A stretch of DNA of 64,000 nt, taken from Candidatus Poriferisodalis sp. (GTDB lineage: Bacteria; Actinomycetota; Acidimicrobiia; Acidimicrobiales; Poriferisodalaceae). Shown here piece after piece: positions 27,139 through 64,000 of the stretch. The DNA lies in assembly GCF_965203655.1 (NCBI RefSeq), contig NZ_CBDBDD010000007.1, positions 7,348-71,347 on the forward strand. Direction: 5' to 3'. Every line of letters starts with the position of its first letter. Position 1 is the first letter of the stretch. The notes beneath the pieces are model-generated. The model was not told where the DNA came from and made no database searches. It saw nothing but the letters and a program-made list of their open reading frames with translations. The position numbers and the translations under genes are program-made.

Positions 27139-28074
27139 GTGGCCAAAGAGAGGGTCGAACGTGACGAGGAAGACCTCGTCCGCCTGTACCTGACCGACAT
27201 CGGCCAGTACCCCCTGCTGAACAAGGACGACGAGGTCCGGCTCGCGCAGCTGATCGAGAAGGGCATCGCCGCCAAGGATTCGCTCGAATCTGCCCGCGAC
27301 ATTTCCAGCGCGCAACGCCGCCGTCTCATCCGAGCGCAGCAGCAGGGCGCCCGTGCCGAGCGCACTTTCGTGCAGTCCAACCTGCGGCTCGTGGTGTCGA
27401 TCGCGAAGAAGTACCAGGCGTCGGGGCTGCCGCTGTTGGATCTCATCCAGGAGGGCAACTTGGGCCTGATGCACGCGGTCGAGAAGTTCGACTGGCGCAA
27501 GGGCTTCAAGTTCTCGACCTATGCGACATGGTGGATCCGCCAGGCGATCACGCGCGGCATCGCCAACACCGGCCGCACGATCCGGCTGCCCGTGCACGCC
27601 GGCGACACGCTGGCCCGCCTGCAGAAGGCCCGCTCCCGGCTCGAGCTGAAATACGGTCGCCCTGCCACGCTCGGCGAGCTGGCGGTCGAGGTCGACATGC
27701 CCGAGCAGAAGGTCACCGAGGCGCTGCGGTTCGCTGCTGAGCCGCTGTCGCTGTCGGAGCCGCTGCGCGAGGACAGCGACGCCGAGCTGGGCGATGTCGT
27801 CGAGGACCGCGCGGCGGAGTCGCCGTTCGAGGTCGCGGCCACCACGCTGCTGCCGAGCGAGATCACCCGGCTGCTGTCACCGCTGGATGAGCGCGAGCGC
27901 GAGATCCTCAAGCTCCGCTACGGCCTCGACCGCGGCGAGCCCCGCACGCTCGAAGAGGTGGGCGAGCACTTCCAGCTCACCCGCGAGCGCATCCGCCAGA
28001 TCGAGGCCCGGGCGATGTCCAAGCTGCGCCATCCCAGCACTGATACCGGCGCACGCGACCTGCTGTCGGTCTAG
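27139..28074 (+). CDS. Sigma-70 family RNA polymerase sigma factor (group 1/2-like, short N-terminus)
   Basis: LVRLYLTDIGQYPLL, NLRLVVSIAKKY, TYATWWIRQAITR, LEEVGEHFQLTRERIRQIE. Confidence 0.88.
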   Translation: MAKERVERDEEDLVRLYLTDIGQYPLLNKDDEVRLAQLIEKGIAAKDSLESARDISSAQRRRLIRAQQQGARAERTFVQSNLRLVVSIAKKYQASGLPLLDLIQEGNLGLMHAVEKFDWRKGFKFSTYATWWIRQAITRGIANTGRTIRLPVHAGDTLARLQKARSRLELKYGRPATLGELAVEVDMPEQKVTEALRFAAEPLSLSEPLREDSDAELGDVVEDRAAESPFEVAATTLLPSEITRLLSPLDEREREILKLRYGLDRGEPRTLEEVGEHFQLTRERIRQIEARAMSKLRHPSTDTGARDLLSV

Positions 28075-28162
28075 CGAGCCACCTGTCGGTCTGGCCAGCA
28101 ACGCGTCGGTCTAGCGGGCCACGCGACGGTCAAACCAGCCACGCGACGGGGCCGACAGTGGT
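28063..28162 (+). repeat. Five phased 20-bp degenerate tandem repeats spanning the sigma-gene stop codon
   Basis: CTGTCGGTCTAGCGAGCCAC / CTGTCGGTCTGGCCAGCAAC / GCGTCGGTCTAGCGGGCCAC / GCGACGGTCAAACCAGCCAC / GCGACGGGGCCGACAGTGGT, spaced exactly 20 nt apart. Confidence 0.65.
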
Positions 28163-28363: not shown

Positions 28364-28459
28364 TGGCGGAGGTGGACGGGAATCGAACCCGCCGGACGGG
28401 GATCACCCGTCCCGCCCGCTTTGAAGGCGGGGGAGCCCACCAGGCGCTCAGACACCTCC
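28364..28459 (-). tRNA. selC: tRNA-Sec (anticodon UCA)
   Basis: 96 nt. Anticodon arm CCCGC-CUUCAAA-GCGGG. Long variable arm GGACGGG-UGAUC-CCCGUCC. T loop UUCGAUU. 6-bp-type D stem with a 4-nt loop. Discriminator G plus encoded CCA. Confidence 0.8.
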
Positions 28460-53092: not shown

Positions 53093-54373
53093 GTGGTCGC
53101 ACGCATCGAGGAGCACATCGCCCGGCACCTCAGTCCCCATGTCAGCCATGCGCTTGGCGGCTTTCGTGTCGTGGTGTTGCACGGTGCGCGCCAGTCGGGG
53201 AAGACGACCCTGGCGCGCAGAGTGGCGGAGCGTGCAGGCGGCACCTATGTCACCCTTGAGGACGAGCCGATGCTGCAGGCTGCGCTTGACGATCCTGCGG
53301 CGCTGCTGAATGCGTGGCCGACGCCGCTGGCTGTCGACGAGGTGCAGCTGGCCGGCGACCGGCTGATCAGGGCGGTCAAGCGCTTGGCAGACGAAGAGCA
53401 GACGCCGGGCCGGTTCCTGCTGACCGGTTCCACCGATTTCCTGTCGGTGCCGACTATCAGCGAGTCGCTGGCCGGGCGGGCGCGGCTGATGCGCCTGACC
53501 CCCTTGTCCCAGGCCGAGATCGCCGGCGCCGAGGAGCCGCCGATCGAGAGGTGGATGAGCGGCGACAGCCAGCCCGGCGCCCCGCGCCCTGGCACCTCGC
53601 CGCCGCTGACCCGACGCGACTACGCCGAGCTGATCTGCACCGGCGGCTACCCGGAGGTGCTGCGGCTGCCCGAGGACCTGCGTGCGGGCTGGTTCGAGAG
53701 CTACATCGAGACCGTCGTGGGCCGTGACATCACCGCGCTCGCGGACATCCGGCGATCCACAGCACTGGCGCCGCTGCTGCGCTGGACCGCCGCCCAGACA
53801 TCCCAGGAACTGAACCTCACCGCGGCGTCGAGGCGGCTCGCCATCAGCCAGCCGACCGTCGTCAGCTACCTCGATTGGCTCCGGGCCGTGTTCTTGACCC
53901 AGGAGCTCCCGGCCTGGTCGCGCAACCTGTCGGCGCGAGCGATCCGGCGCCCGAAGCTGCACATTGCCGACACCGCTCTCGCCGCGCACCTGCTCGGCTC
54001 CGGGCCGCAGGCGCTGCTGGCGCCGACATCACAGGCATTCGGCATGCTGGCGGAGTCGTTCGTCGTCAACGAGATCGCCCGTCAATCCACTAGCGCCGCG
54101 GCTCGCATCAGCTTGATGCACTACCGCGACGCGCACCATGAGGCAGACATCATCCTTGAGACACCCGACGGCTCGGTGACTGCCATCGAGGTCAAGGCCA
54201 GCAGCTCTCCCTCGCCCCGCGCAGCAGACCACCTTCGCTGGCTGCGCGACCGGCTCGACACCGTGGCTCCCGGGGCGTTCGCCGGCGGGATCGTGCTGCA
54301 CATGGGCGAGCACGAGGTGAGCCTAGGAGACCGCATCAGCATGCGGCCCATCTCGTCACTCTGGAAAAGCTGA
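53093..54373 (+). CDS. AAA-type ATPase with DUF4143-like C-terminal domain
   Basis: Walker A HGARQSGKTTLAR. The C-terminal EADIILE...AIEVKAS restriction-endonuclease-like fold is typical of DUF4143 proteins. Confidence 0.8.
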   Translation: MVARIEEHIARHLSPHVSHALGGFRVVVLHGARQSGKTTLARRVAERAGGTYVTLEDEPMLQAALDDPAALLNAWPTPLAVDEVQLAGDRLIRAVKRLADEEQTPGRFLLTGSTDFLSVPTISESLAGRARLMRLTPLSQAEIAGAEEPPIERWMSGDSQPGAPRPGTSPPLTRRDYAELICTGGYPEVLRLPEDLRAGWFESYIETVVGRDITALADIRRSTALAPLLRWTAAQTSQELNLTAASRRLAISQPTVVSYLDWLRAVFLTQELPAWSRNLSARAIRRPKLHIADTALAAHLLGSGPQALLAPTSQAFGMLAESFVVNEIARQSTSAAARISLMHYRDAHHEADIILETPDGSVTAIEVKASSSPSPRAADHLRWLRDRLDTVAPGAFAGGIVLHMGEHEVSLGDRISMRPISSLWKS

Positions 54374-54579: not shown

Positions 54580-55884
54580 TTATGGGGCGAGGATGGTGTG
54601 GCTGCGCTGGGTTATGGCGTTGAGGAGGCGGCTGGGGGTGCCTGAGGCGCGCATGGCGACGGGCAGTGTGTCGATCTCGGCGGCCAGTCGGTGGGGTGTC
54701 TCGCGGGCGATGCGCATGACCTCGGCGGCTGCCCAGTCGGGGTCGGCACCCAGGGTGCGGGCGGTGTCGCGCCAGTCGTCGATGCGGGCGCCTGTGCCCA
54801 CCTGGTAGCCGGCGCCGAGGGTCATGGCGAGGTGGACGTCGTGGGGCGCTACGTCGGTGTAGGGCAGCCAGGAGGCGGTGTCGTACAGCGGTGCCAGCCG
54901 GCAGACGCCGCCGGGCAGGTGCACCAGCGCGTGGTTCTTGGAGTGGGCGTCGTTGGCGACGATCACCCAGCAGTAGACGAGCCGCCGGAGGAGGGCCGCG
55001 ATGTCGGCCGCGGCGTCGCTGCTGTGGGTGTGCAGCAGGCCGGCGATGTCGGCGGGCGACGGTCCGCCGTCTCGCTGGAACCGCAGCGCCGCGGGACGGC
55101 CGAGCGCCTGGCACATGTCTTCTTGGTGGGTGCGTGCCAGCGATTCGGGGTCGGCGGGGCCCCGGACGCGGTCGTAGCGCTGCACCACGAGCGTCTCGAC
55201 GCCGCCGATCACCGCGACCTCGGTGCGGACCGCGTCGATGCCGAGCGCGCGGGCGGTCGCGAGCGCGAGATGCTCGCCGACCGCTTGGCCTGGGTAGATG
55301 GCTACCGAGGGCTTGAGGATGTGGCTGGTGGGCTCGTCGCCGACGGCTCGGTGCCACGCGTCGTCGCTGCGGCGCAGGGCCAGCTTGGGCATGGTGCCCG
55401 CGAGGCTGAAGCTGGCGAGCGGGTCCGTGCGCCATCCGCCCAAGCGTGCGCCCTCGGCGAGATCGCGCACTGCGGCGGCGAGGTCGGCATCGGTGATCGG
55501 CTCGAGCGCCGAGGGGCGATCAGCGTGCCGAGCGGCGGGGCCGCCGACGGGCGCGGCTGCTGCGGGCTCGAACTGCACAGCGCCGGCGCATTCGGCGCCG
55601 ATGGGCGTGGCGAGCAGGTCGAACGGGTCGACCGACGCAGCGCCCACGCTGGCGCGCCACCGCTCGCGGTCGGCGGGCAGGTCCGGCAGCAGGCCGTCCA
55701 GCCAGTTCCCGACCGCCGCGCCGCCATGGGGCTGGGCCCGCATCGGCAGCGACAGCGACAGCGGGACCGCGTCGGGGTGAGCGAGGTAGCCGGCGTCATA
55801 AGCGAGCACCGTGCCGGCCGGCGTGCGGGAGACGACCGCGGCATCGATGCCGCCGACGCGCACCCTCAACGCGTCGGGCGTCAT
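54580..55884 (-). CDS. hipA: HipA-family serine/threonine kinase toxin
   Basis: N-terminal coupling domain (AVGNWLDGLLPD) and catalytic VANDAHSKNHALVH. ATG 55884 overlaps the hipB stop (ATGA). Confidence 0.85.
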   Translation of the reverse strand: MTPDALRVRVGGIDAAVVSRTPAGTVLAYDAGYLAHPDAVPLSLSLPMRAQPHGGAAVGNWLDGLLPDLPADRERWRASVGAASVDPFDLLATPIGAECAGAVQFEPAAAAPVGGPAARHADRPSALEPITDADLAAAVRDLAEGARLGGWRTDPLASFSLAGTMPKLALRRSDDAWHRAVGDEPTSHILKPSVAIYPGQAVGEHLALATARALGIDAVRTEVAVIGGVETLVVQRYDRVRGPADPESLARTHQEDMCQALGRPAALRFQRDGGPSPADIAGLLHTHSSDAAADIAALLRRLVYCWVIVANDAHSKNHALVHLPGGVCRLAPLYDTASWLPYTDVAPHDVHLAMTLGAGYQVGTGARIDDWRDTARTLGADPDWAAAEVMRIARETPHRLAAEIDTLPVAMRASGTPSRLLNAITQRSHTILAP

Positions 55885-56162
55885 GGCCGGTCGGCTACCA
55901 CGTCGCGGTAGGTCGGGCGCTCGCTGTTCGCTTCGCGCACGACAAGGTCGCAGCCGAGCGCGTTGCAGATCTTGACGAGGCCGTCGAGCTGCATGGTGAG
56001 CTTGCCCGCCTCCGCATCGCACACGAGCTTGCGAGACACGCCCGCCGCATCCGCGAGCGCCTGCTGGGTCATGCCGAGCTCCCGGCGCCGGCTGGCTACC
56101 ACGTTCGCCAGCGATCCCGGCGTGCGCACAACGAAGGCTGCCAACGGTCTCACGGCGCACAC
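55881..56162 (-). CDS. hipB: XRE-family HTH antitoxin HipB
   Basis: RRRELGMTQQALADAAGVSRKLVCDAEAGK. Confidence 0.8.
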   Translation of the reverse strand: MCAVRPLAAFVVRTPGSLANVVASRRRELGMTQQALADAAGVSRKLVCDAEAGKLTMQLDGLVKICNALGCDLVVREANSERPTYRDVVADRP

Positions 56163-56319
56163 CCTAACCCGATGTCACCGTCCGCACGCACCAAACGGTC
56201 TATCACCGAACGCATACAAACAGCGTGATGACACCATACGCATGCACACGATCCCAACGCAGGCTACGACCCTTGACGCGACCGGCCCGACGCAGATCCC
56301 GCCGCCCGCCGCAGCCTTG

Positions 56320-56368
56320 GAGCTGCCAGGACCCGAAATCACACGGAAGGGAGCCGAACAAGAAGAGG
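56320..56368 (+). repeat. Leader cassette copy 1 (diverged)
   Basis: GAGCTGCCAGGACCCGAAATCACACGGAAGGGAGCCGAACAAGAAGAGG, 41/49 identical to copy 3. TTG 7 nt downstream (56376) opens a 23-codon ORF. Confidence 0.7.
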
Positions 56369-56522
56369 CTGAACGTTGGCTGCTCGTGCGCGTGAAAATC
56401 GTTGGACTTCGGCACCGTCGATCACCCATGATCGAGCGATCTGCTGACCGCTCAACTGGCCCGCCCTGGAGACCCTCGTACACTGCGGTGCTGTAGGACG
56501 GATGCCGAGGAGGTGTATTCGA

Positions 56523-56720
56523 ATGAGCGACAGCGGCGACGATGTCAAGGTCATTCACTACACCGACGAGGACGTCCGCGAAGGCAATCAGCGCATGCTC
56601 GAGGATGTCGGCTGCACTTGGGAGCAGCTGCAGGCGCAGGCCCAAGCCGGCCGTTTCGAGAGCGCGAAGGCCCGCGACGTGTGGCTCGTCATCTCGTCCT
56701 TTGAACCAGCTACAGCGTGA
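56523..56720 (+). CDS. Hypothetical small acidic protein (65 aa)
   Basis: ATG 56523 lies 9 nt after GAGGAGG. No recognisable family. Overlaps the next ORF by 20 nt. Confidence 0.5.
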   Translation: MSDSGDDVKVIHYTDEDVREGNQRMLEDVGCTWEQLQAQAQAGRFESAKARDVWLVISSFEPATA

Positions 56721-57312
56721 CCTGGAGCGCCAGGCGAAGCAGTTCGCCGGCGAGACAGCGGATGTGCTCAATGGCACCGTCACTGACGGCATCCGATTGG
56801 ACTGCGGGCTGTACACGCACGGGTCGCACGGACAGGCGATAGTCACCTACAAGCTGGACCGCATCAATCGCCGTGGCGAACCCATCCCGCTGAAGATCTC
56901 ACGTACACCGGCAAAGCTGTCGCTGCGTGTGTTCCATGCGCTGCGAATGGACGACGAGAGCCGTCATCTGGCCAACATCAAGAGCACGTACGGGCTCTAC
57001 GTTCAGCACAAGAGCGCTTTCGCGTATCACTACGAGCGCGATGCCGACAACGACTACCCGGCAGCGCACCTGCACATCGACGGCAAGGCCAAACGCTTGC
57101 AGAGGATTCTTGACGTCGTCGGCCGCGGCAAGGACAAGCCGACCGCCCTGCACTTGCCCGTCGGGGGCCGCAGGTATCGGCCGAGCCTCAGCCGTCTCGC
57201 CCGGCCGTCATCTAACGGTTCGACGGCCTCTGAACTAACGCTTCGGCGGCCGCCGCGCGAGCTGTCAGGGCTCGAAATCGCATGGAAAGGAGCCGAACAA
57301 GGAGAAACATAA
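56701..57312 (+). CDS. Hypothetical protein (~203 aa; start TTG 56701 or GTG 56764)
   Basis: Frame +1 relative to the small ORF. No recognisable family. The last ~17 codons run through leader cassette copy 2, so the C-terminus may not be native. Confidence 0.45.
   Translation: MNQLQRDLERQAKQFAGETADVLNGTVTDGIRLDCGLYTHGSHGQAIVTYKLDRINRRGEPIPLKISRTPAKLSLRVFHALRMDDESRHLANIKSTYGLYVQHKSAFAYHYERDADNDYPAAHLHIDGKAKRLQRILDVVGRGKDKPTALHLPVGGRRYRPSLSRLARPSSNGSTASELTLRRPPRELSGLEIAWKGAEQGET
57259..57307 (+). repeat. Leader cassette copy 2 (5-prime UTR and RBS of the CWB2 protein gene)
   Basis: GAGCTGTCAGGGCTCGAAATCGCATGGAAAGGAGCCGAACAAGGAGAAA, 48/49 identical to copy 3. TTG 57315 lies 7 nt downstream. 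Confidence 0.75.
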
Positions 57313-57314
57313 CC

Positions 57315-60233
57315 TTGACTACCTACTCGAAGCGGCGAAGCAGGCGTTCCCTCGCTGCGGTCCTGGCGGCGATGCTCATCGCATCGGTGCTCGCGGTCGT
57401 AGCGGGATCCCCAGCCCAAGCCGCAAACACTTCTTTCGAGGTGAAGAGAGATCACGACAACAACGCGGCTACGGCGTCAGTCCGTGAGTTCGCTGGTCAG
57501 GATCGCTACGACACAGCGCTGCGACTGGCGAAGAACTTCGCCACCTCAAAGGGCGGCCTTGGCTCCGTTCCGGCAGCGTTCGTCTCGTCTGGCGAGACAT
57601 TGGTCGACTCCATCTCGGTCGCCGGTCTTGCCGGCTATGTAGATGCCCCGATCTTGCTGACCCCCACGGGCAGCTTGCATGGCGGCGTCGCTGACTTCAT
57701 CGAGGACTACGGCGTCAGCACGGTGTACGTGCTGGGCGGCTCGGCCGCCATTGCCGATTCAGTGGTGACTTCCATTGAGGGGCTCACCTCGAAGCCGAAG
57801 GTGACCCGTGTTTCGGGCGACGACCGGTACGCAACTGCCGCTGCGATCGCATCGATGATCGACGCTGAGTCGTCTTGGTGCGATACCGACGCGGTGAGTG
57901 CGGTGCTGATCAACGGCGCCACCGACATGATGCCGTTCGGCGTGGCTGTGCAGACGATTGCCTATCGCCTGCAGCTTCCTGTGCTGATGACGGCCGCTGA
58001 CGAGCTGCCTGACGCGACCGCGGAGTACATCACCGAGAACGATGTGGAGCATGTCCAGATCGTCGGTGGTACTGGCACAGTGTCGGCTGATGTTGCTTCG
58101 GCGCTGACCACGCTCGGTGTCGACACCGTGGCCCGTGTGGAGGGCGACTCCGCTGCGGCAGTGTCAGTCGCACTGGCTGCGCTCGCGAACGACGGCTGCG
58201 GCGACGACCTCGGCTTGGTGTCCAACGACCGCGTGGCATTGGTGCGCGGCAATCCCGACGGCGTGGTCGCTGCTCCGGTGCTGGCATCCAGCTTCGCCGG
58301 CGGCTATCTGGTGACCCCGCTGGTTGTGGGCGACAGCCTGCCGGCCTCGGTGCGCGACCATCTCGCCGCCACGCCGCAGAACATCGGCACCAACCGGCTG
58401 AACCTGGGCATCCTCGCTGTCGGTGGCACCGCTGCGGTCAGCGAGGCCACCATGAAGGCTGCGCTCGAAGCGGCAGCCTCGACTGCTGCGCTGACCGTGC
58501 GGATCGGCGCCGCGAGCGACACCAACAAGGACGGGGCGACCAACGCGGACGACCCGGTGCGGCCCGACCCGGCGGCTACCGGCACGGCGACCGCCATCGA
58601 TGCGAGCGCTAGCCCGCCGACTGGGCCGATGATCTCGCTGTACTTCAGCGATGCTGTGACCGCGACCGCCAACGTGGAGCGGATCAAGGACGTCGTCGAG
58701 ATCAATGGCATCCCGGCGATTGTGCTCAACGCTGCGGGGAACGCCGGCGCCGTGTGCGACCAGACCCGGATCGACGTCACGCTCGGCCAGGCGCTCAGCG
58801 CTGGCGATGTGATCTCGATCGACGGCTCGGCTGTCAAGCTCGGCACGTCGACTGATCAGCGCACCTTCGGGTCCGCGACCACGACAGTGACCGCTCCTGC
58901 GCCGGACCGTGTGCGGCCGACGATCTCGATCGTGGGCATCGCGGGCGCGGCGACGGCAAGGGCGACGTTCGAGATCAGCTTCAATGACAATGTCGGCCTG
59001 GCAGGCACTGCACAGCTCGCCACCGATGAGGTGAGGATCGTCGGCGGACCCGGCGGCACGAGCCCTGCACCGACGGTGACCGTGGCTCATACTGCGGGCA
59101 CAAATTCGGCGGTGGCGACCGTCAGCCGCGACTTGGTGGCTGGTGATCGGCTGATCATCAACCCGGGCGCAGTTGAGGACGCTGCGGGCAACAAGAGCGC
59201 CGGCACGTCGGGTGCGGCGATCAAGGCGCAGGCCAGCCCGCGCATCAACCGGGTGCTGATGAGCGATCTGAAGCACACCGCGCACGCCACATGGACGGTC
59301 CCGGCCGGTTCTGTGGGCGGCGTCACCGGAACCGGCGCCGGGATCACGATCCGGGCGAAGGGCGACGGCGACGCCGCGGGCGCTGCAGGCAATGACTGGT
59401 CGATGGTGTTCGACCGGGCCAGCACCTACAGCCCTGCCAAGCCGCTGGACATCGGCGTGAGCGTCGATCCCAAGGGCAAGCGCGTGACGGTGCGGTTCAA
59501 CAACGGCCCCGCCACTGCCACCTTGGGCGATCTGATCAAGACGTTGAACGCCGATGCCGAGTTCTCGGCGCTGTTCTCGGCGGGCTTCACCAGCTGCTCC
59601 TTGGCGGCGGAGAACAGTGCGGGCAGTGCTGTGCTGGGCTTGGTTACGGCTCGGAACGTGGCCGCTGGCTTCAGCGACTCGGGTCGCACCCAGTTCGCCA
59701 TCGAGGTGAACTTCAACGCCTACGTTGACGTGATCCGCAACCCGAACCTGCTCGAGGACCTTCTGGCGGCTACCAGGGTCCGCACACGGCCCAGCGCGGC
59801 TGAGACCGTGGCAGAGGGGAACACCCGGGTGCAGACTGCCGCGACCGGCGGCGACGGTGCCGCTGCTGGCGGCGGTCTGACGATCTTCGCGGACTTGAAC
59901 GCTGACAGCCCGGCGCTGCCCGTTGTGGACGCCAGCGCGGCTCCGGTGCGGTCGGTGCGCTATGAGTTCGAGACATCGCAGGTGCGCTACCTGCCGATGG
60001 CACGCGACCTCGTGCAGACCGCTGCAGGCCACGCCGGCGCAGCTGCCGTCACCGGGCCTCCGGCGTACTCGGCGATCACCGCTGACGCCGGGGTAGCGAC
60101 CGGCTACGCCGCCGACGCCCCCGCGACCGGCACAACCGACACCACAACCGCGGCTGACAGGGTCGATGAGAACCTCAACGGCTCGTCGCAGAACCGCATC
60201 CAGGTGTCCAACAGCGTCAAGGCTCCCTCCTAG
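57315..60233 (+). CDS. Secreted 972-aa protein with three N-terminal CWB2 cell-wall-binding repeats and a long Ala/Thr/Gly-rich C-terminal region (S-layer-like)
   Basis: Signal peptide KRRSRRSLAAVLAAMLIASVLAVVAGSPAQA-A. Three units of the G-DRY-TA...APILL...V(Y/Q)(V/I)LGG type, matching the Pfam CWB2 pattern. Confidence 0.8.
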   Translation: MTTYSKRRSRRSLAAVLAAMLIASVLAVVAGSPAQAANTSFEVKRDHDNNAATASVREFAGQDRYDTALRLAKNFATSKGGLGSVPAAFVSSGETLVDSISVAGLAGYVDAPILLTPTGSLHGGVADFIEDYGVSTVYVLGGSAAIADSVVTSIEGLTSKPKVTRVSGDDRYATAAAIASMIDAESSWCDTDAVSAVLINGATDMMPFGVAVQTIAYRLQLPVLMTAADELPDATAEYITENDVEHVQIVGGTGTVSADVASALTTLGVDTVARVEGDSAAAVSVALAALANDGCGDDLGLVSNDRVALVRGNPDGVVAAPVLASSFAGGYLVTPLVVGDSLPASVRDHLAATPQNIGTNRLNLGILAVGGTAAVSEATMKAALEAAASTAALTVRIGAASDTNKDGATNADDPVRPDPAATGTATAIDASASPPTGPMISLYFSDAVTATANVERIKDVVEINGIPAIVLNAAGNAGAVCDQTRIDVTLGQALSAGDVISIDGSAVKLGTSTDQRTFGSATTTVTAPAPDRVRPTISIVGIAGAATARATFEISFNDNVGLAGTAQLATDEVRIVGGPGGTSPAPTVTVAHTAGTNSAVATVSRDLVAGDRLIINPGAVEDAAGNKSAGTSGAAIKAQASPRINRVLMSDLKHTAHATWTVPAGSVGGVTGTGAGITIRAKGDGDAAGAAGNDWSMVFDRASTYSPAKPLDIGVSVDPKGKRVTVRFNNGPATATLGDLIKTLNADAEFSALFSAGFTSCSLAAENSAGSAVLGLVTARNVAAGFSDSGRTQFAIEVNFNAYVDVIRNPNLLEDLLAATRVRTRPSAAETVAEGNTRVQTAATGGDGAAAGGGLTIFADLNADSPALPVVDASAAPVRSVRYEFETSQVRYLPMARDLVQTAAGHAGAAAVTGPPAYSAITADAGVATGYAADAPATGTTDTTTAADRVDENLNGSSQNRIQVSNSVKAPS

Positions 60234-60303
60234 GAGCGAGCTGCACAGTTGACCTGAACCGTTCGGGCGGGCTGCCCGCCTGATCGGCAAAGAACAACAA
60301 CGA

Positions 60304-60335
60304 AAGAGCCCCGGGGTTTCGGCCCCGGGGCTCTT
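60304..60335. terminator. 13-bp GC-rich stem-loop after the CWB2 gene
   Basis: AAGAGCCCCGGGG-TTTCGG-CCCCGGGGCTCTT. There is no T tract on the + side, and the U-rich flank is on the opposite strand. Confidence 0.5.
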
Positions 60336-60476
60336 CGCGTGCGGGCCCCTGTCGTCGTTGCGCTCCGTGCGGTCTGTTGGTCGGTGTCGGGCGGAGGCGC
60401 TAGTGTGAGAGCACGAAGACCCATCGGTTGGCCGCCTGGTTCATCCGGGAAGCACGGTGACCGGTTCTATTGATCC

Positions 60477-60508
60477 CAGGGGTGCCATTGGCACCCCTGA
60501 ATCTTTTT
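60477..60508 (+). terminator. Intrinsic-terminator-like palindrome with T tract just upstream of the NYN gene RBS
   Basis: CCAGGGGTGCCATTGGCACCCCTGG-type perfect palindrome (60477-60499) followed by AATCTTTTT, then GGAGGG and GTG 60518. Confidence 0.55.
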
Positions 60509-60517
60509 GGAGGGCTC

Positions 60518-61138
60518 GTGTCGGCCGGTCCAGCGTCGCAGCACTATCGCGTGCGCGTGTTCGTCGATTTCTGGAACTACACGCTCGCGATGAGGGACGC
60601 CGACGCCGGGTTCCGCACCGACTGGTCGCTGCTAGGTCCCGCAGTGTCGTCCGCGGCGGCTTCCTCGGTTGGCTCTCAGGTCCGGCACACCTACCAAGGC
60701 ATGTCCGTTCACGGCTCATATGACCCGTCTCGGGACCGCAAGCTGCTGAACTGGGCGACAACGGTGCTGGGCGGCTTTGCCGGGGTGCGTGTGGACTTCT
60801 CCCCTCGGCGCAAGAGACGCGGCGCGCCGTCGTGTCCGCGCTGTCACGCATCGGTTGACAGGTGCCCCCAATGCGGCAGCGACATGCGAGGCACCGAGGA
60901 AAAGGGCGTCGACGTGCGCATGGCCATAGAGATGATCAGCCTGGCGATGCTGGGCAGCTACGACATCGCTGTGCTCGTCTCGTCAGACCGCGACTTCATA
61001 CCGGTCGCGGAGTTCCTCAGCTCTCGGGGGATCACGGTGATTCACGCCGCGTTCGGCAGCCTCGGGGCCGAGCTCTCCCAGAGCTGCTGGACGCGCATCG
61101 ACCTGCCTCACCTGCGGCCCAGCTTCGAGCGCTCATAG
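60518..61138 (+). CDS. NYN-domain (LabA/DUF88-like) putative RNase with inserted CxxC-x7-CxxC zinc ribbon
   Basis: VRVFVDFWNY, EKGVDVRMAIEM and VLVSSDRDFIPV are the NYN acidic motifs. The insert is SCPRCHASVDRCPQCGS. Confidence 0.8.
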   Translation: MSAGPASQHYRVRVFVDFWNYTLAMRDADAGFRTDWSLLGPAVSSAAASSVGSQVRHTYQGMSVHGSYDPSRDRKLLNWATTVLGGFAGVRVDFSPRRKRRGAPSCPRCHASVDRCPQCGSDMRGTEEKGVDVRMAIEMISLAMLGSYDIAVLVSSDRDFIPVAEFLSSRGITVIHAAFGSLGAELSQSCWTRIDLPHLRPSFERS

Positions 61139-61623
61139 CAACAACGACGCGTCGCAGCGGCGCGTCGTGCGGCCCGTGGTACAGATGCAACCCGTCGACG
61201 AACGCTGCTGCCCCTACGTCCATGCTCGCCTGCTCTCGGGTTTGCCGGACGACATGCCGCAGCCCGATCAACGCAGGTCGGATGTATAATCCCGCCCAGA
61301 GCTGTCCTGCGCGGGTGACCGCCAGGAGCGAGAAATGCCCCCCAACCGACGGGGGCATTTCTGCGCCATGGACACCGCCAGGGCATTGCTCCTGCTCACA
61401 GGACGAAGCCGACACGCGGCTGGCAATACCGCGCCGGGCCGCTGCCGAACGCCGGGCCATCACCTGGCGGCTTGAGGGCCTCTGATCTAACACTTCGAGG
61501 TCCAATGAAGCAGCCGTCGCGACGCGACGGCACCCATCGGCGTGACCGCAGCGCAGCATCGCTCGGTGACGCGAGGCATGCACGGTCGGCACGATCCAGA
61601 TGCTTCGTAAGCGGCCGGCGAGC

Positions 61624-61672
61624 GAGCTGTCAGGGCTCGAAATCGCACGGAAAGGAGCCGAACAAGGAGAAA
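61624..61672 (+). repeat. Leader cassette copy 3
   Basis: GAGCTGTCAGGGCTCGAAATCGCACGGAAAGGAGCCGAACAAGGAGAAA. GTG 61680, 7 nt downstream, opens a 17-codon ORF ending at 61733. The next gene starts at 61812. Confidence 0.75.
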
Positions 61673-61811
61673 AGGAACCGTGGCTGCTTGGGCGAGCGGC
61701 GGCCTTGGCGCTGGACCAATGAAAGAGCATTGAAAAATACTGAAATTCATTTTCCGAATCAAGAGAGGCTCCCTGCTGTCCACAGCGGATCGCTGCAGAA
61801 AGGAATCCGCT

Positions 61812-62123
61812 GTGTCTGAACAAGATCGTTCTCGCCTCTACGCTTGGTGGTGCGAGCAGGCCGACGAGTCGCTCGCCGAATACGTCATGTCCTGTCTGAG
61901 CCCTGTGTCGCTTCCCGATCTCGCCACCAAGGACGACTTCAGGGTTCTCAAGAGCGACATAGCGCGTCTCGATACCGCGTTCGAGCGACTTGAGTCCAAG
62001 TTCGAGCGGCTCGTCGATGCCCGCGAGGCCGACCGCAAGGAAGCGCGGCATCAGTTCCGCTGGCTGGCCGGCATCGGCGTGTCGATCCTCGGCGTCGTGG
62101 TAGGGCTCGGCATTTTCTCGTAG
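61812..62123 (+). CDS. Small coiled-coil protein with C-terminal TM anchor (DUF1640/XhlA-like architecture), paralog A
   Basis: SRLYAWW, AEYVMSCL, a LATKDDFRVLKSDIARLD coiled coil, and the C-terminal WLAGIGVSILGVVVGLGIF. Confidence 0.6.
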   Translation: MSEQDRSRLYAWWCEQADESLAEYVMSCLSPVSLPDLATKDDFRVLKSDIARLDTAFERLESKFERLVDAREADRKEARHQFRWLAGIGVSILGVVVGLGIFS

Positions 62124-62356: not shown

Positions 62357-62929
62357 TCAGAGATTCACGAGTTCCGGCGGCGCCCAAGCAGGCCAGCCTG
62401 ATTGCCGCACGAGCAGGCCGTTTCGGTAGTGAGCGACGAGGCGGAACGGCGTCGATGCCGAAGTGTTGTCATAGACATGCGATTGGCCGGCTATCCGGAC
62501 GGCAGCAGCGACATGGCCCCACAGTCGACGGTGGCGTGAACGGATCTTGTCCTCAGGAACTGCGTGGCCGCCGTTGGAGACGCGATCTTCGACTCTGGCG
62601 ACCGCAAAATCCTCTGGGACGATGACGACATGCAGGACAACGATGTAGCCGGATCGGGACGCGTTGCGCACAAGGCCGACCTTGGACTCGTGCGAGAACA
62701 CCGTCTCGGCCACAAATGATCGATGCGCTTGGATCAACTGCTCTCGGCGCTGTTCCGCCATCTGCGCCGCTTGGTAGGCGTGCTCACCTGGATCATCGGG
62801 CCATCGCTCGGCTGCGATCCGGTCGGCGTTGACGAACTCCAAAGACGAGGGTGCGAGCACGCGTTCAACAAAGGTCGTCTTGCCGGCACCGTTGGGACCC
62901 GCGATGACATGCAGCACCGGTGAGGTCAT
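62357..62929 (-). CDS. Zeta-toxin-like / AAA P-loop kinase-fold protein
   Basis: Walker A IAGPNGAGKTT. 190 aa from ATG 62929. Lies downstream of a ParD-like gene. Confidence 0.8.
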   Translation of the reverse strand: MTSPVLHVIAGPNGAGKTTFVERVLAPSSLEFVNADRIAAERWPDDPGEHAYQAAQMAEQRREQLIQAHRSFVAETVFSHESKVGLVRNASRSGYIVVLHVVIVPEDFAVARVEDRVSNGGHAVPEDKIRSRHRRLWGHVAAAVRIAGQSHVYDNTSASTPFRLVAHYRNGLLVRQSGWPAWAPPELVNL

Positions 62930-62961
62930 CACGAGCTCCGCGATCAATCCTGGGGCCGCGG

Positions 62962-63312
62962 CTACGGCTGTCGAGTGACGATGTTCCCGTCGTCGTCGAG
63001 TTCGACATACGAGCGGCCTTCGGCCGCGAACTCGTCGGCCAAGTTGAGGTCTCGGCGGCGCTGGTCGGTGCGTTCGGCCCATTCTGCCCGCACAACAGCC
63101 TGCTCTCGTTCGTTCAGGTCGTCGTAGGAAGCTCTGCATCCGAGCACCTGCTCGATCGCCTGGGTCGAGACGTTCGGCGCAGACTCGAGCTCCTTGCCGA
63201 TCCGCGCCCAGTGGCTCACTTGCTGGGCGGCGCTGCGGCTCATCAGCGGTGCCAACGCAGTGGCGAGGGCATGGATGTCCTCATCGACTCGAATCGGTGT
63301 GCTTGTCGCCAC
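62962..63312 (-). CDS. ParD-like antitoxin partner of the zeta-like protein
   Basis: IRVDEDIHALATALAPLMSRSAAQQVSHWARIGKELE and EQAVVRAEWAER. GTG 63312 lies 7 nt after GGGAGG. Confidence 0.65.
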   Translation of the reverse strand: MATSTPIRVDEDIHALATALAPLMSRSAAQQVSHWARIGKELESAPNVSTQAIEQVLGCRASYDDLNEREQAVVRAEWAERTDQRRRDLNLADEFAAEGRSYVELDDDGNIVTRQP

Positions 63313-63363
63313 ACGACCACCTCCCAAGCAACTGTAGCAGATTGCTACCAACAGAAGCCCGCC

Positions 63364-63717
63364 GTGTCTGAAGAGGATCGCTCTCGCCTCTACGCTTGGT
63401 TCCGTGAGCAGCTCGACGAGCGCCGCGCGGAGTACATGATGTCGTGCCTCGCGCCCGCGCCGCTGTCGGACCTGGTGACCAAGGAGCATCTTGAGAGGGT
63501 GCTGTCGTCGGCGTTCTCGGAGTTCGCGCTGAATCAGTCCGACTGGCGCGAAGCCGACCGCAAGCAAATCGCCGACGAGCGCGAGGCCGACCGTCAGGAG
63601 GCCCGCAAGCGTCACAGGTGGCTGGTGGGGATCGCTGTTGTGTTGGCGTTGGAGATCGTGGCGGCCGAGGCGGGCTGGTTGCAGCCGCTCACCGACCTGC
63701 TCACCGCGGCGTCCTGA
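63364..63717 (+). CDS. Small coiled-coil protein with C-terminal TM anchor, paralog B
   Basis: The first ~45 nt are nearly identical to paralog A (GTGTCTGAA.A.GATCG.TCTCGCCTCTACGCTTGGT). Shares SRLYAW, AEYMMSCL, READRK and RWLVGIAVV. Confidence 0.6.
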   Translation: MSEEDRSRLYAWFREQLDERRAEYMMSCLAPAPLSDLVTKEHLERVLSSAFSEFALNQSDWREADRKQIADEREADRQEARKRHRWLVGIAVVLALEIVAAEAGWLQPLTDLLTAAS

Positions 63718-64000
63718 TCCGCTGAGCGGTTCGCGGCTCGCGCACCCTGCTCCGTTCGAGCAGGCGCCCTGGGGGCGACGTCAGTGCGCGATCTGGGCCG
63801 GCCGAAAATTCCCCTATGACGCGGCGGCGAAGGCCGTTACACTGGTCCTGTTCCGCGTATCTCGCGTATGCGGATCACCAGGTGGGGCCCACTGGGTGCG
63901 AATGCGCTGCGGTGAGCCCTTCAACCGGTCGGCGCTGTCACAAACCGCGGCGACGCGGGGTTTGACAATGCAGAGCGGGAGCATCTCCCGTCGTACAGAA

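Follow-up and report, generated by a model that had tools for sequence, protein, structure and literature searches.

The subject of this article is a short DNA element that recurs three times, always on the same strand, in a 64-kilobase (kb) stretch of the genome of Candidatus Poriferisodalis sp. (contig NZ_CBDBDD010000007.1); we call this whole stretch the window. A first-pass annotation, made from the letters alone, had described a 49-nucleotide (nt) string at 56320–56368, 57259–57307 and 61624–61672, and there it indeed is. Copies 2 and 3 match the exact pattern and differ from each other at a single position of the 49 (the one written as Y), and copy 1, read letter by letter, departs from copy 2 at 8 of the 49. 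Shuffled windows are expected to contain 0.00 matches to the string. Copies 2 and 3 are 98% identical over 62 nt, and a repeat finder gathers all three into one family of 75-nt copies (56307–56381, 57246–57320 and 61611–61685). A profile made from related leader copies, which we ran on the window and on loci fetched from other assemblies, scores copy 1 at 59.6 bits (E 2.7e-17), copy 2 at 71.4 and copy 3 at 65.9, and finds no fourth copy anywhere else in the 64 kb. A search of the window with the ribosome-binding core alone matched copies 2 and 3 only.

The start codons sit where they had been placed, TTG at 56376, TTG at 57315 and GTG at 61680, and open reading frames (ORFs) of 23, 972 and 17 codons. 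The modest upstream extension of the string also stands (about 16 nt, from 56304, an edge set by synteny breakpoints), but the unit is larger still, since it also covers the first 30 nt or so of the ORF. Only copy 2 (57246..57320, plus strand) opens a real gene, at 57315..60233 on the plus strand, which encodes a 972-amino-acid (aa) secreted surface protein of the CWB2 (cell-wall-binding) kind, with the signal peptide MTTYSKRRSRRSLAAVLAAMLIASVLAVVAGSPAQA and a match to PF04122 at E 2e-23. Its CWB2 region resembles Clostridioides difficile Cwp6 and Cwp8 (matches in the PDB). Copy 1 (56304..56382, plus strand; delimited by the repeat family, the profile search and the edges of synteny) and copy 3 (61606..61703, plus strand; an exact match, found by repeat family and profile alike, with about 25 nt of decayed CWB2 gene start) are what we call orphans. 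The 23-codon ORF of copy 1 (56376..56447, plus strand; MAARARENRWTSAPSITHDRAIC) has the look of a CWB2 gene start that has decayed and been joined to unrelated sequence, and the 17-codon ORF of copy 3 (61680..61733, plus strand; MAAWASGGLGAGPMKEH) is not conserved.

We think it quite probable that a family of CWB2 genes has the element as its common 5' leader and translation start, with copy 2 as a working example and copies 1 and 3 as orphans, and that the leader doubles as homology for recombination. The family in question is a multigene set of secreted CWB2 surface proteins in sponge-associated Acidimicrobiia, Candidatus Poriferisodalis and its relatives. Each orphan would then consist of leader, start codon and a few decayed signal-peptide codons, the body of the gene having been lost or replaced as accessory blocks were exchanged. 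We refer to this form of the leader as type A; a second form, type B, appears below.

A leader shared by a family of surface proteins

The window was compared with 30 loci (L001–L030) fetched from other assemblies, mostly metagenome assemblies. We searched one genome of each bacterial species with an exact degenerate 25-nt leader pattern, and metagenome contigs and viral contigs with a looser one; the further copies in L019–L029 came from loci fetched through protein look-ups. The exact pattern gave 15 matches in 13 loci, all of them in metagenome-assembled genomes (MAGs) of Acidimicrobiia: two Candidatus Poriferisodalis chromosomes, one of which has six, and two other Acidimicrobiia/Acidimicrobiales MAGs (Candidatus Poriferisodalis is itself placed in Acidimicrobiales). 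The looser pattern added four true loci in metagenome contigs and found no leader copies in viral contigs, so there is no sign of a phage origin. With the profile, 26 distinct copies were found in L001–L017 plus the window, and more in L019–L029. A count of further copies in relatives, together with a look at what lies downstream, had been proposed at the outset; it comes to about 40 in Candidatus Poriferisodalis and related Acidimicrobiia assemblies, about half of them leading CWB2 genes and the rest orphans. They occur in clusters of two to four per 8 kb, all on one strand, in L001, L003, L008, L011, L013, L016/L017, L019, L020, L022 and L025.

Thirteen distinct copies directly precede full-length CWB2 ORFs of 913–996 aa, with the spacing AAGGAG-10 nt-TTG, and several others stand before CWB2 ORFs truncated at the end of a contig. 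The first 35 or so residues of these proteins are almost identical (MTT[YTH][ST]K[RM]RG[RK]RSLAAILAAML..AVVAGSPAQA). The protein family is large, with 589 homologues at E ≤ 1e-5, nearly all of them unnamed or labelled Acidimicrobiia/Poriferisodalis, and with several paralogs on single contigs. The leader thus belongs to this family on two counts: it lies directly upstream of full-length members in several genomes, and the copies without a gene keep remnants of the N terminus.

Those remnants form a graded series. In all classes of tail, nucleotide homology with the CWB2 gene start extends beyond the start codon by some 30 nt or more. The signal peptide is still readable as MTTTKARRGKRSLAAILAA... 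in L003 (57 aa), MATTKKRQGTRSLAPVLA in L016 (69 aa) and MAARAMRRGMRFLAAPRAV in L022 and L025, and it fades through MAARAKRRREPCA in L013 to MAAWASGG in window copy 3 and MAARARENRW in window copy 1. In five orphans (L003_1716, L013_3427, L019_18924, L020_8734 and L025_6956) the start codon or the second Shine-Dalgarno motif is gone. The leader travels with the first CWB2 codons; the orphans are truncated gene starts and not a promoter that moved by itself. Of the earlier suggestion of a propagated promoter or 5' untranslated region, then, the propagated untranslated region with its ribosome-binding site survives; a promoter was not detected. The opposite suggestion, that the copies are merely decaying fragments of CWB2 5' ends with no conserved short ORFs, is largely how things look in the relatives, except that many further copies do exist.

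Copy 3 tells the same story from its surroundings. Its tail class is common to L011_1871 and L013_4559 (90% over 78 nt), and the intergenic region in which it sits is homologous to the L021 spacer between an NYN gene and the next CWB2 gene, so a CWB2 gene start is to be expected there. At the equivalent position in L021, downstream of the NYN gene, there is a leader with a full CWB2 gene.

Recombination at the leader

One idea in the first-pass annotation was that the copies are joints left by recombination, and comparison with the other assemblies bears it out: homology starts or stops at 56304, 56323, 56366, 57309 and about 61702, and differences between strains pile up in the elements. On the hipA side, L003 follows the window at 96% identity up to 56366, inside copy 1 and near its 3' edge, and then runs into a different tail, a truncated CWB2 start. 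The 5' edge of the same copy, 56304, is where homology to L011, L022/L024, L025, L028 and L029 begins; all continue from there at 97–99% identity, and the DNA upstream is different. L001 joins at 56323 (95% identity onward), again with different DNA upstream. L025 keeps about 98% identity as far as 57309, where the core of copy 2 ends, and then goes off into a tail that is not CWB2. L023 shares only the 65-aa gene that follows copy 1, at 98%, and has no element upstream of it. Each arrangement of blocks occurs in at least two independent assemblies.

Closely related strains add a second line of evidence. L022 is a contig 98% identical to the window over 5.9 kb, and 46 of the 117 differences between the two fall within the 369 nt of the elements, which makes 12.5% differences there against 1.29% elsewhere. 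The corresponding figures are 5.1% against 1.3% for L027 and 6.2% against 0.5% for L025, so that the elements are enriched in differences 4- to 12-fold in three of four comparisons of near-identical strains. The core of copy 2 in L022, together with the opening 70 nt or so of the CWB2 ORF, has the sequence typical of another paralog class (MTTTKMRRGK...), and the remainder of the gene is 99% identical; this segment is, to judge from the alignment, a conversion tract. Certain variants, moreover, are shared by the copies of one genome across tail classes: GAATTC is found in all copies of L015/L016, and on chromosome OZ241968 GAGATCGC is found in 6 of 10 copies and GAGTTCGC in one more.

Two patches of difference lie outside the leaders. 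Between the window and the 98.7%-identical L026, 67 of 86 differences fall into seven 100-nt bins at 58300–58999, inside the body of the CWB2 gene, which suggests, on the strength of the alignment, that mosaic exchange also occurs within the variable part of the protein. The other patch is at 61304–61503, 200 nt of the spacer between the NYN gene and copy 3, and holds about 45 of the 117 differences from L022; it looks like another recombination patch.

Comparison of the assemblies shows that the copies, some 65–110 nt long, act as portable homology, and that recombination and gene conversion between them join different upstream and downstream blocks and overwrite the copies with one another. 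The mechanism would most simply be homologous recombination of the RecA type and not the work of a dedicated recombinase. The family has what one looks for in a recombining one, namely several paralogs per genome, a conserved 5' block, variable bodies and recombination at the block. Of programmed switching we saw no sign in the arrays and ORF maps: there is no invertase, all copies are direct and each full gene has its own leader.

The short ORFs behind the orphans

Both orphans of the window open short ORFs beginning M-A-A, and translational control by an upstream ORF had been put forward. The comparison does not support it. Across the orphans these ORFs run from 9 to 81 codons with unrelated sequences, and that of copy 3 has 44 codons (MAARAKRRRWTNER...) in the 98%-identical L022 against 17 in the window. 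The 23-codon ORF of copy 1 occurs only in orthologous loci (L001, L011, L022 and L025–L027, at 95–99% DNA identity), where the changes, counted by hand, number 3 of each kind, synonymous and non-synonymous, and tell nothing about selection. Nothing in the leader copies or the relatives points to a conserved leader peptide.

Copy 2 had also been said to overlap the end of a 203-aa ORF. A frame from 56542 to 57312 does traverse copy 2, but the overlap is missing in L001. The ORF itself (56701–57312) reads through copy 2 only in the strain group of the window, and its homologue in L001 stops about 100 nt upstream. Neither the short M-A-A ORFs nor this read-through tail are genes. A 207-aa ORF at 60862–61485 is not called as a gene in L022 and is probably not one; it and the 203-aa ORF are probably best regarded as annotation traps. 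We found no paralogy between the two, which are alike only in their 3' non-coding modules.

Anatomy of the leader and its flanks

The consensus of the leader reads gGGCT-GTCAG-GGCCC GAAATCACAC GGAAAGGAG CC GAAC AAGGAG AAACATAACC TTG. In copy 2 this becomes a small hairpin (CGAGCT-GTCAG-GGCTCG), a start-less Shine-Dalgarno motif GGAAAGGAG, the true Shine-Dalgarno AAGGAG and then TTG. AAGGAG ends 10 nt before TTG, and the two would be the ribosome-binding site and the translation start, as read from the letters. Against the complement of the usual 3' tail of 16S rRNA, GGAAAGGAG matches over 8 nt. It lies 30 nt upstream of TTG, with no ATG, GTG or TTG ahead of the true Shine-Dalgarno. The hairpin has 5–6 base pairs (bp) and is 73% paired across the copies, one pair varying as GC 12, GU 6 and AU 5. 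Together, GGAAAGGAG and the small hairpin may be a ribosome stand-by site or a 5' stabiliser for the mRNA of a highly expressed surface protein; the layout is the same as that of the start-less Shine-Dalgarno stabilisers of Bacillus and mycobacterial katG, and there are precedents for start-less Shine-Dalgarno or polypurine stabilisers (PMC3997798; PMC2358910). A GGCTC-GAGCC helix that would hide the first Shine-Dalgarno was also considered and is rejected, since it is broken in 15 of 26 copies and the T/C variation is never compensated. Inspection of the upstream regions by eye turned up no consistent -10/-35 boxes, only a semi-conserved cgtgaacggccgtctgag motif.

Other modules flank the leaders. 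Upstream of copy 2 lies a module of about 48 nt (57198..57245, plus strand) that holds an inverted repeat of 7 bp, GGCCGTC...GACGGCC, as well as the motif TCTGAACTAAC, and alignment finds a second copy of it at 61450..61497 on the plus strand, about 110 nt upstream of copy 3. At the other end of the gene, 3' of the CWB2 stop codon, a strong hairpin rich in guanine plus cytosine (GC) occupies 60303..60336 on the plus strand, inside a 3' flank that is conserved among paralogs: 60200–60343 is 73–94% identical to CWB2 3' flanks in L001, L002, L005, L016, L019, L020 and L021. A scan scored the hairpin as terminator-like on the minus strand. It is a near-palindrome and so also forms on the CWB2 transcript, with AAAG before the stem and TTC after it, and its position suggests that it may serve as the CWB2 terminator.

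The type B leader lies at the very end of the window (63925..64000, plus strand; GCTGTCACAAACCGCGG...TTTGACAATGCAGAGCGGGAGCATCTCCCGTCGTACAGAA), which cuts it about 28 nt before the expected start codon. It is 92% identical to L021 4214–4291, where the counterpart runs on into a ribosome-binding site, GAACAAGGAGAAACAGAACCTTG and a CWB2 gene of 1013 aa, so the island of the window would hold at least two CWB2 genes and two orphan starts. The leaders of L021, whose proteins are about 50% identical, share with type A just GAACAAGGAGAAAC..TTG and the signal peptide; their 5' part is a different one, itself conserved.

Weighing the explanations

Several findings sit awkwardly with a leader that is simply shared, orphaned and recombined. 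Metagenome assemblies dominate the comparison DNA, and repeats in such assemblies can give chimeric joins, a caveat mitigated by the recurrence of every arrangement in independent assemblies and by the presence of orphan arrays in complete-chromosome MAGs. The fourth strain comparison, with L026, has no excess of differences in the elements and a patch inside the CWB2 body instead. Mean core identity is 0.873 for copies of the same genome with different tails and 0.850 for copies of different genomes with different tails, so small an excess that the claim of concerted evolution rests on the specific shared variants and the strain comparisons. The 5' half of type A, start-less Shine-Dalgarno included, is missing from the L021 leaders and from the type B leader of the window, so that CWB2 expression in general does not depend on it. 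Even among orphans, whose tails have diverged to about 55–60% identity, the 3' half of the core hardly varies; such invariance could reflect a retained function of the orphans rather than conversion. At the RNA level, no shuffle reached the covariation score of the hairpin, yet this is weak support, as the sequences are related and the score could reflect that relatedness. The leader folds no better than shuffled sequence (z of the minimum free energy -0.6 to 0), and a scan for sigma-70-like promoter consensus found no site in or near the element, Acidimicrobiia promoters themselves not being characterised.

The invariant core invites the thought that the leader is a mobile expression module recruited for unrelated genes (here the 65-aa/203-aa pair and a small membrane protein), its orphans functional and under selection. 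Orphans in the window, L022, L025 and L016 do lie 80–400 nt upstream of small same-strand genes; most orphans have both Shine-Dalgarno motifs nearly intact and TTG or GTG at the exact position, and highly similar upstream sequences before unrelated genes are a described phenomenon (PMC3575422). Yet two orphans, L019_18924 and L020_8734, point at the 3' end of convergent minus-strand genes, the ORF screen found no plausible same-strand ORF after several others (L008, L013), and in L012 a hairpin stands right behind a 9-codon ORF; the orphans cannot, therefore, all lead downstream genes. Within the window, copy 1 is mutated in both Shine-Dalgarno motifs (GGAAGGGAG and AAGAAG), and the 65-aa gene behind it has its own GAGGAGG ribosome-binding site and does without the element in L023. 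With no promoter consensus in or near the element either, we regard recruitment as unlikely.

About as doubtful is a more ambitious version of our own reading, in which the leader is maintained on purpose, as an exchange site or a shared regulatory RNA, for the rapid swapping or co-regulation of surface-layer paralogs together with toxin-antitoxin and defence blocks. It draws on the near-invariance of the 33-nt core even in orphans and on the interleaving of the arrays with defence genes and, if true, would amount to a surface-variation system built around a portable 5' module in sponge symbionts.

We find it hard to believe that the element is the target of a dedicated site-specific recombinase, an att- or attC-like site at which accessory blocks are inserted and excised. 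Same-orientation copies do bound blocks, breakpoints do fall on the edges of the element, and a P4-type tyrosine integrase is encoded at the edge of one CWB2 array (L019 733–1908). But no recombinase is found among the called genes of L020–L030 (a weak point, L001–L018 and the window island having been covered by ORF maps, with Pfam on ten window ORFs), the element has none of the inverted-repeat architecture of a recombinase-binding site, and it always carries the remnants of a CWB2 start codon. Conversion patches reach far past the element, into the codons of the signal peptide and the body of CWB2, which fits homologous recombination. A miniature inverted-repeat or other transposable element was also tried as an explanation and rejected: the copies in each array face the same way, the CWB2 start remnant is constant and the copies occur only in these islands. 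No terminal inverted repeats or target-site duplications are evident in the leader alignments, which were not searched specifically for them.

Least credible to us is a cis-regulatory RNA or attenuator, in which a structured leader or a leader peptide would sense a signal and control translation or termination. Some 33 nt of primary sequence are very strongly conserved, the small hairpin shows some compensatory change and the short ORFs begin at a fixed distance from the element. But the folding z is near 0, the alifold consensus has 5 pairs of which none covary, the helix that would sequester the first Shine-Dalgarno is broken in most copies, and the short ORFs vary in length even between 98%-identical strains. 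The earlier remark that the element is no named riboswitch or leader was correct: Rfam has no match at the gathering threshold and only chance-level ones at E up to 10.

The surrounding island

The region around the three copies looks, from its gene content, like a defence and toxin-antitoxin island. For an AAA_14/DUF4143 gene at 53093–54373, PADLOC gives a match to its candidate defence family PDC-S01 (E 1.7e-137). Pfam identifies a HipA gene at 54580–56160 and a zeta-toxin-like ATPase gene at 62357–63139, both on the minus strand, and the NYN gene at 60470–61138 has a weak PADLOC match to HEC-09. Pfam, NCBIfam and PADLOC gave no annotation for the 65-, 203-, 103- and 265-aa ORFs. Elsewhere, L019, L020 and L021 hold same-strand arrays of three to five CWB2 genes, interleaved with PIN, HipA, RES, RelA/SpoT, nucleotidyltransferase/HepT, AbiEi, HicA, NYN and AAA_14/DUF4143 genes.

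A 150-nt direct repeat (61784–61933 and 63336–63485, 71% identity) marks two paralogous genes for small putative membrane proteins, homologues of which adjoin CWB2 arrays in L009, L015, L016, L019, L020 and L021. The integrase gene of L019 (minus strand; Arm-DNA-bind_3, Phage_int_M and Phage_integrase) adjoins the first gene of a four-gene CWB2 array and may mark the boundary of an island. Far from the island, the window has a selenocysteine tRNA at 28368–28459 (minus strand, 67 bits), with a run of 20-nt tandem units (GTCGGTCTAGCGAGCCACCT-like) about 220 nt away at 28065–28144, and a 116-nt direct repeat (1287–1402 and 2333–2448, 84% identity) in a stretch of 58–61% GC, against 68% for the window overall.

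Meaning and known relatives

An RBS-bearing (ribosome-binding-site) repeat in front of unrelated genes is, on our reading, the footprint of turnover among surface-protein genes, and a warning to annotators. Sponge-associated Acidimicrobiia carry large CWB2 arrays that vary between near-identical strains, with a short shared leader as a hotspot of recombination. Should the CWB2 proteins turn out to build the surface layer of the cell, or to be receptors for phages, the locus would be one where phages or the host drive diversification of the surface of an uncultured symbiont. The leader may, besides, be a compact strong-expression module for high-GC actinobacteria. Our literature searches on Poriferisodalis and on the S-layer of sponge Acidimicrobiia returned nothing, and in the literature open to search we found no account of the CWB2 leader of Candidatus Poriferisodalis relatives.

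The general kind, a multigene family of surface proteins with a recombining conserved 5' block, is well known. The variable lipoproteins of Mycoplasma (vsp/vlp) and the sap S-layer genes of Campylobacter fetus have a conserved 5' non-coding region plus signal-peptide block, and the likeness lies in these points: many paralogs, near-identical 5' untranslated regions and signal peptides, variable bodies, and recombination that joins different genes at the conserved 5' block. Unlike in those systems, the copies of an array here all point in one direction, and we see neither an invertase nor a single movable promoter. What is left over differs too, being orphaned expression ends here and not silent promoter-less cassettes, and the host is an uncultured sponge-associated actinobacterium.

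In C. difficile the CWB2 (Cwp) family includes an S-layer cassette that is exchanged by homologous recombination (PMC7677006), and SlpA is a phage receptor (PMC8809339). The two systems share the type of cell-wall-binding domain and the diversification of surface-protein loci by homologous recombination. Whole cassettes are swapped between lineages via flanking genes in C. difficile, whereas here the homology comes from the short leader that the genes share, along with their common 3' flank and its GC-rich hairpin; here, unlike there, toxin-antitoxin and defence genes are interspersed in the arrays.

The leader itself recalls the STAB-SD or polypurine 5' stabilisers of mRNA known from cryIIIA, from B. 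subtilis leaders and from mycobacterial katG (PMC3997798; PMC2358910), with GGAAAGGAG as a strong, start-less Shine-Dalgarno-like motif upstream of the real ribosome-binding site and beside a small 5' hairpin. Unlike a STAB-SD, the motif is missing from the other leader types of the CWB2 family. Putative mobile promoters (Matus-Garcia et al. 2012, as summarised in PMC3575422) share 80% or more identity across 50 nt or more of upstream sequence and adjoin coding sequence that is not homologous. The leader resembles them in placing similar DNA (copies 2 and 3) upstream of ORFs that annotation would call unrelated. Copies 2 and 3 are similar enough to qualify, yet we reject the label: the first 30 nt or so of their ORFs are homologous remnants. 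The leader also lies closer in, at -65 to -8 of the start codon and not at the -150 to -50 of mobile promoters.

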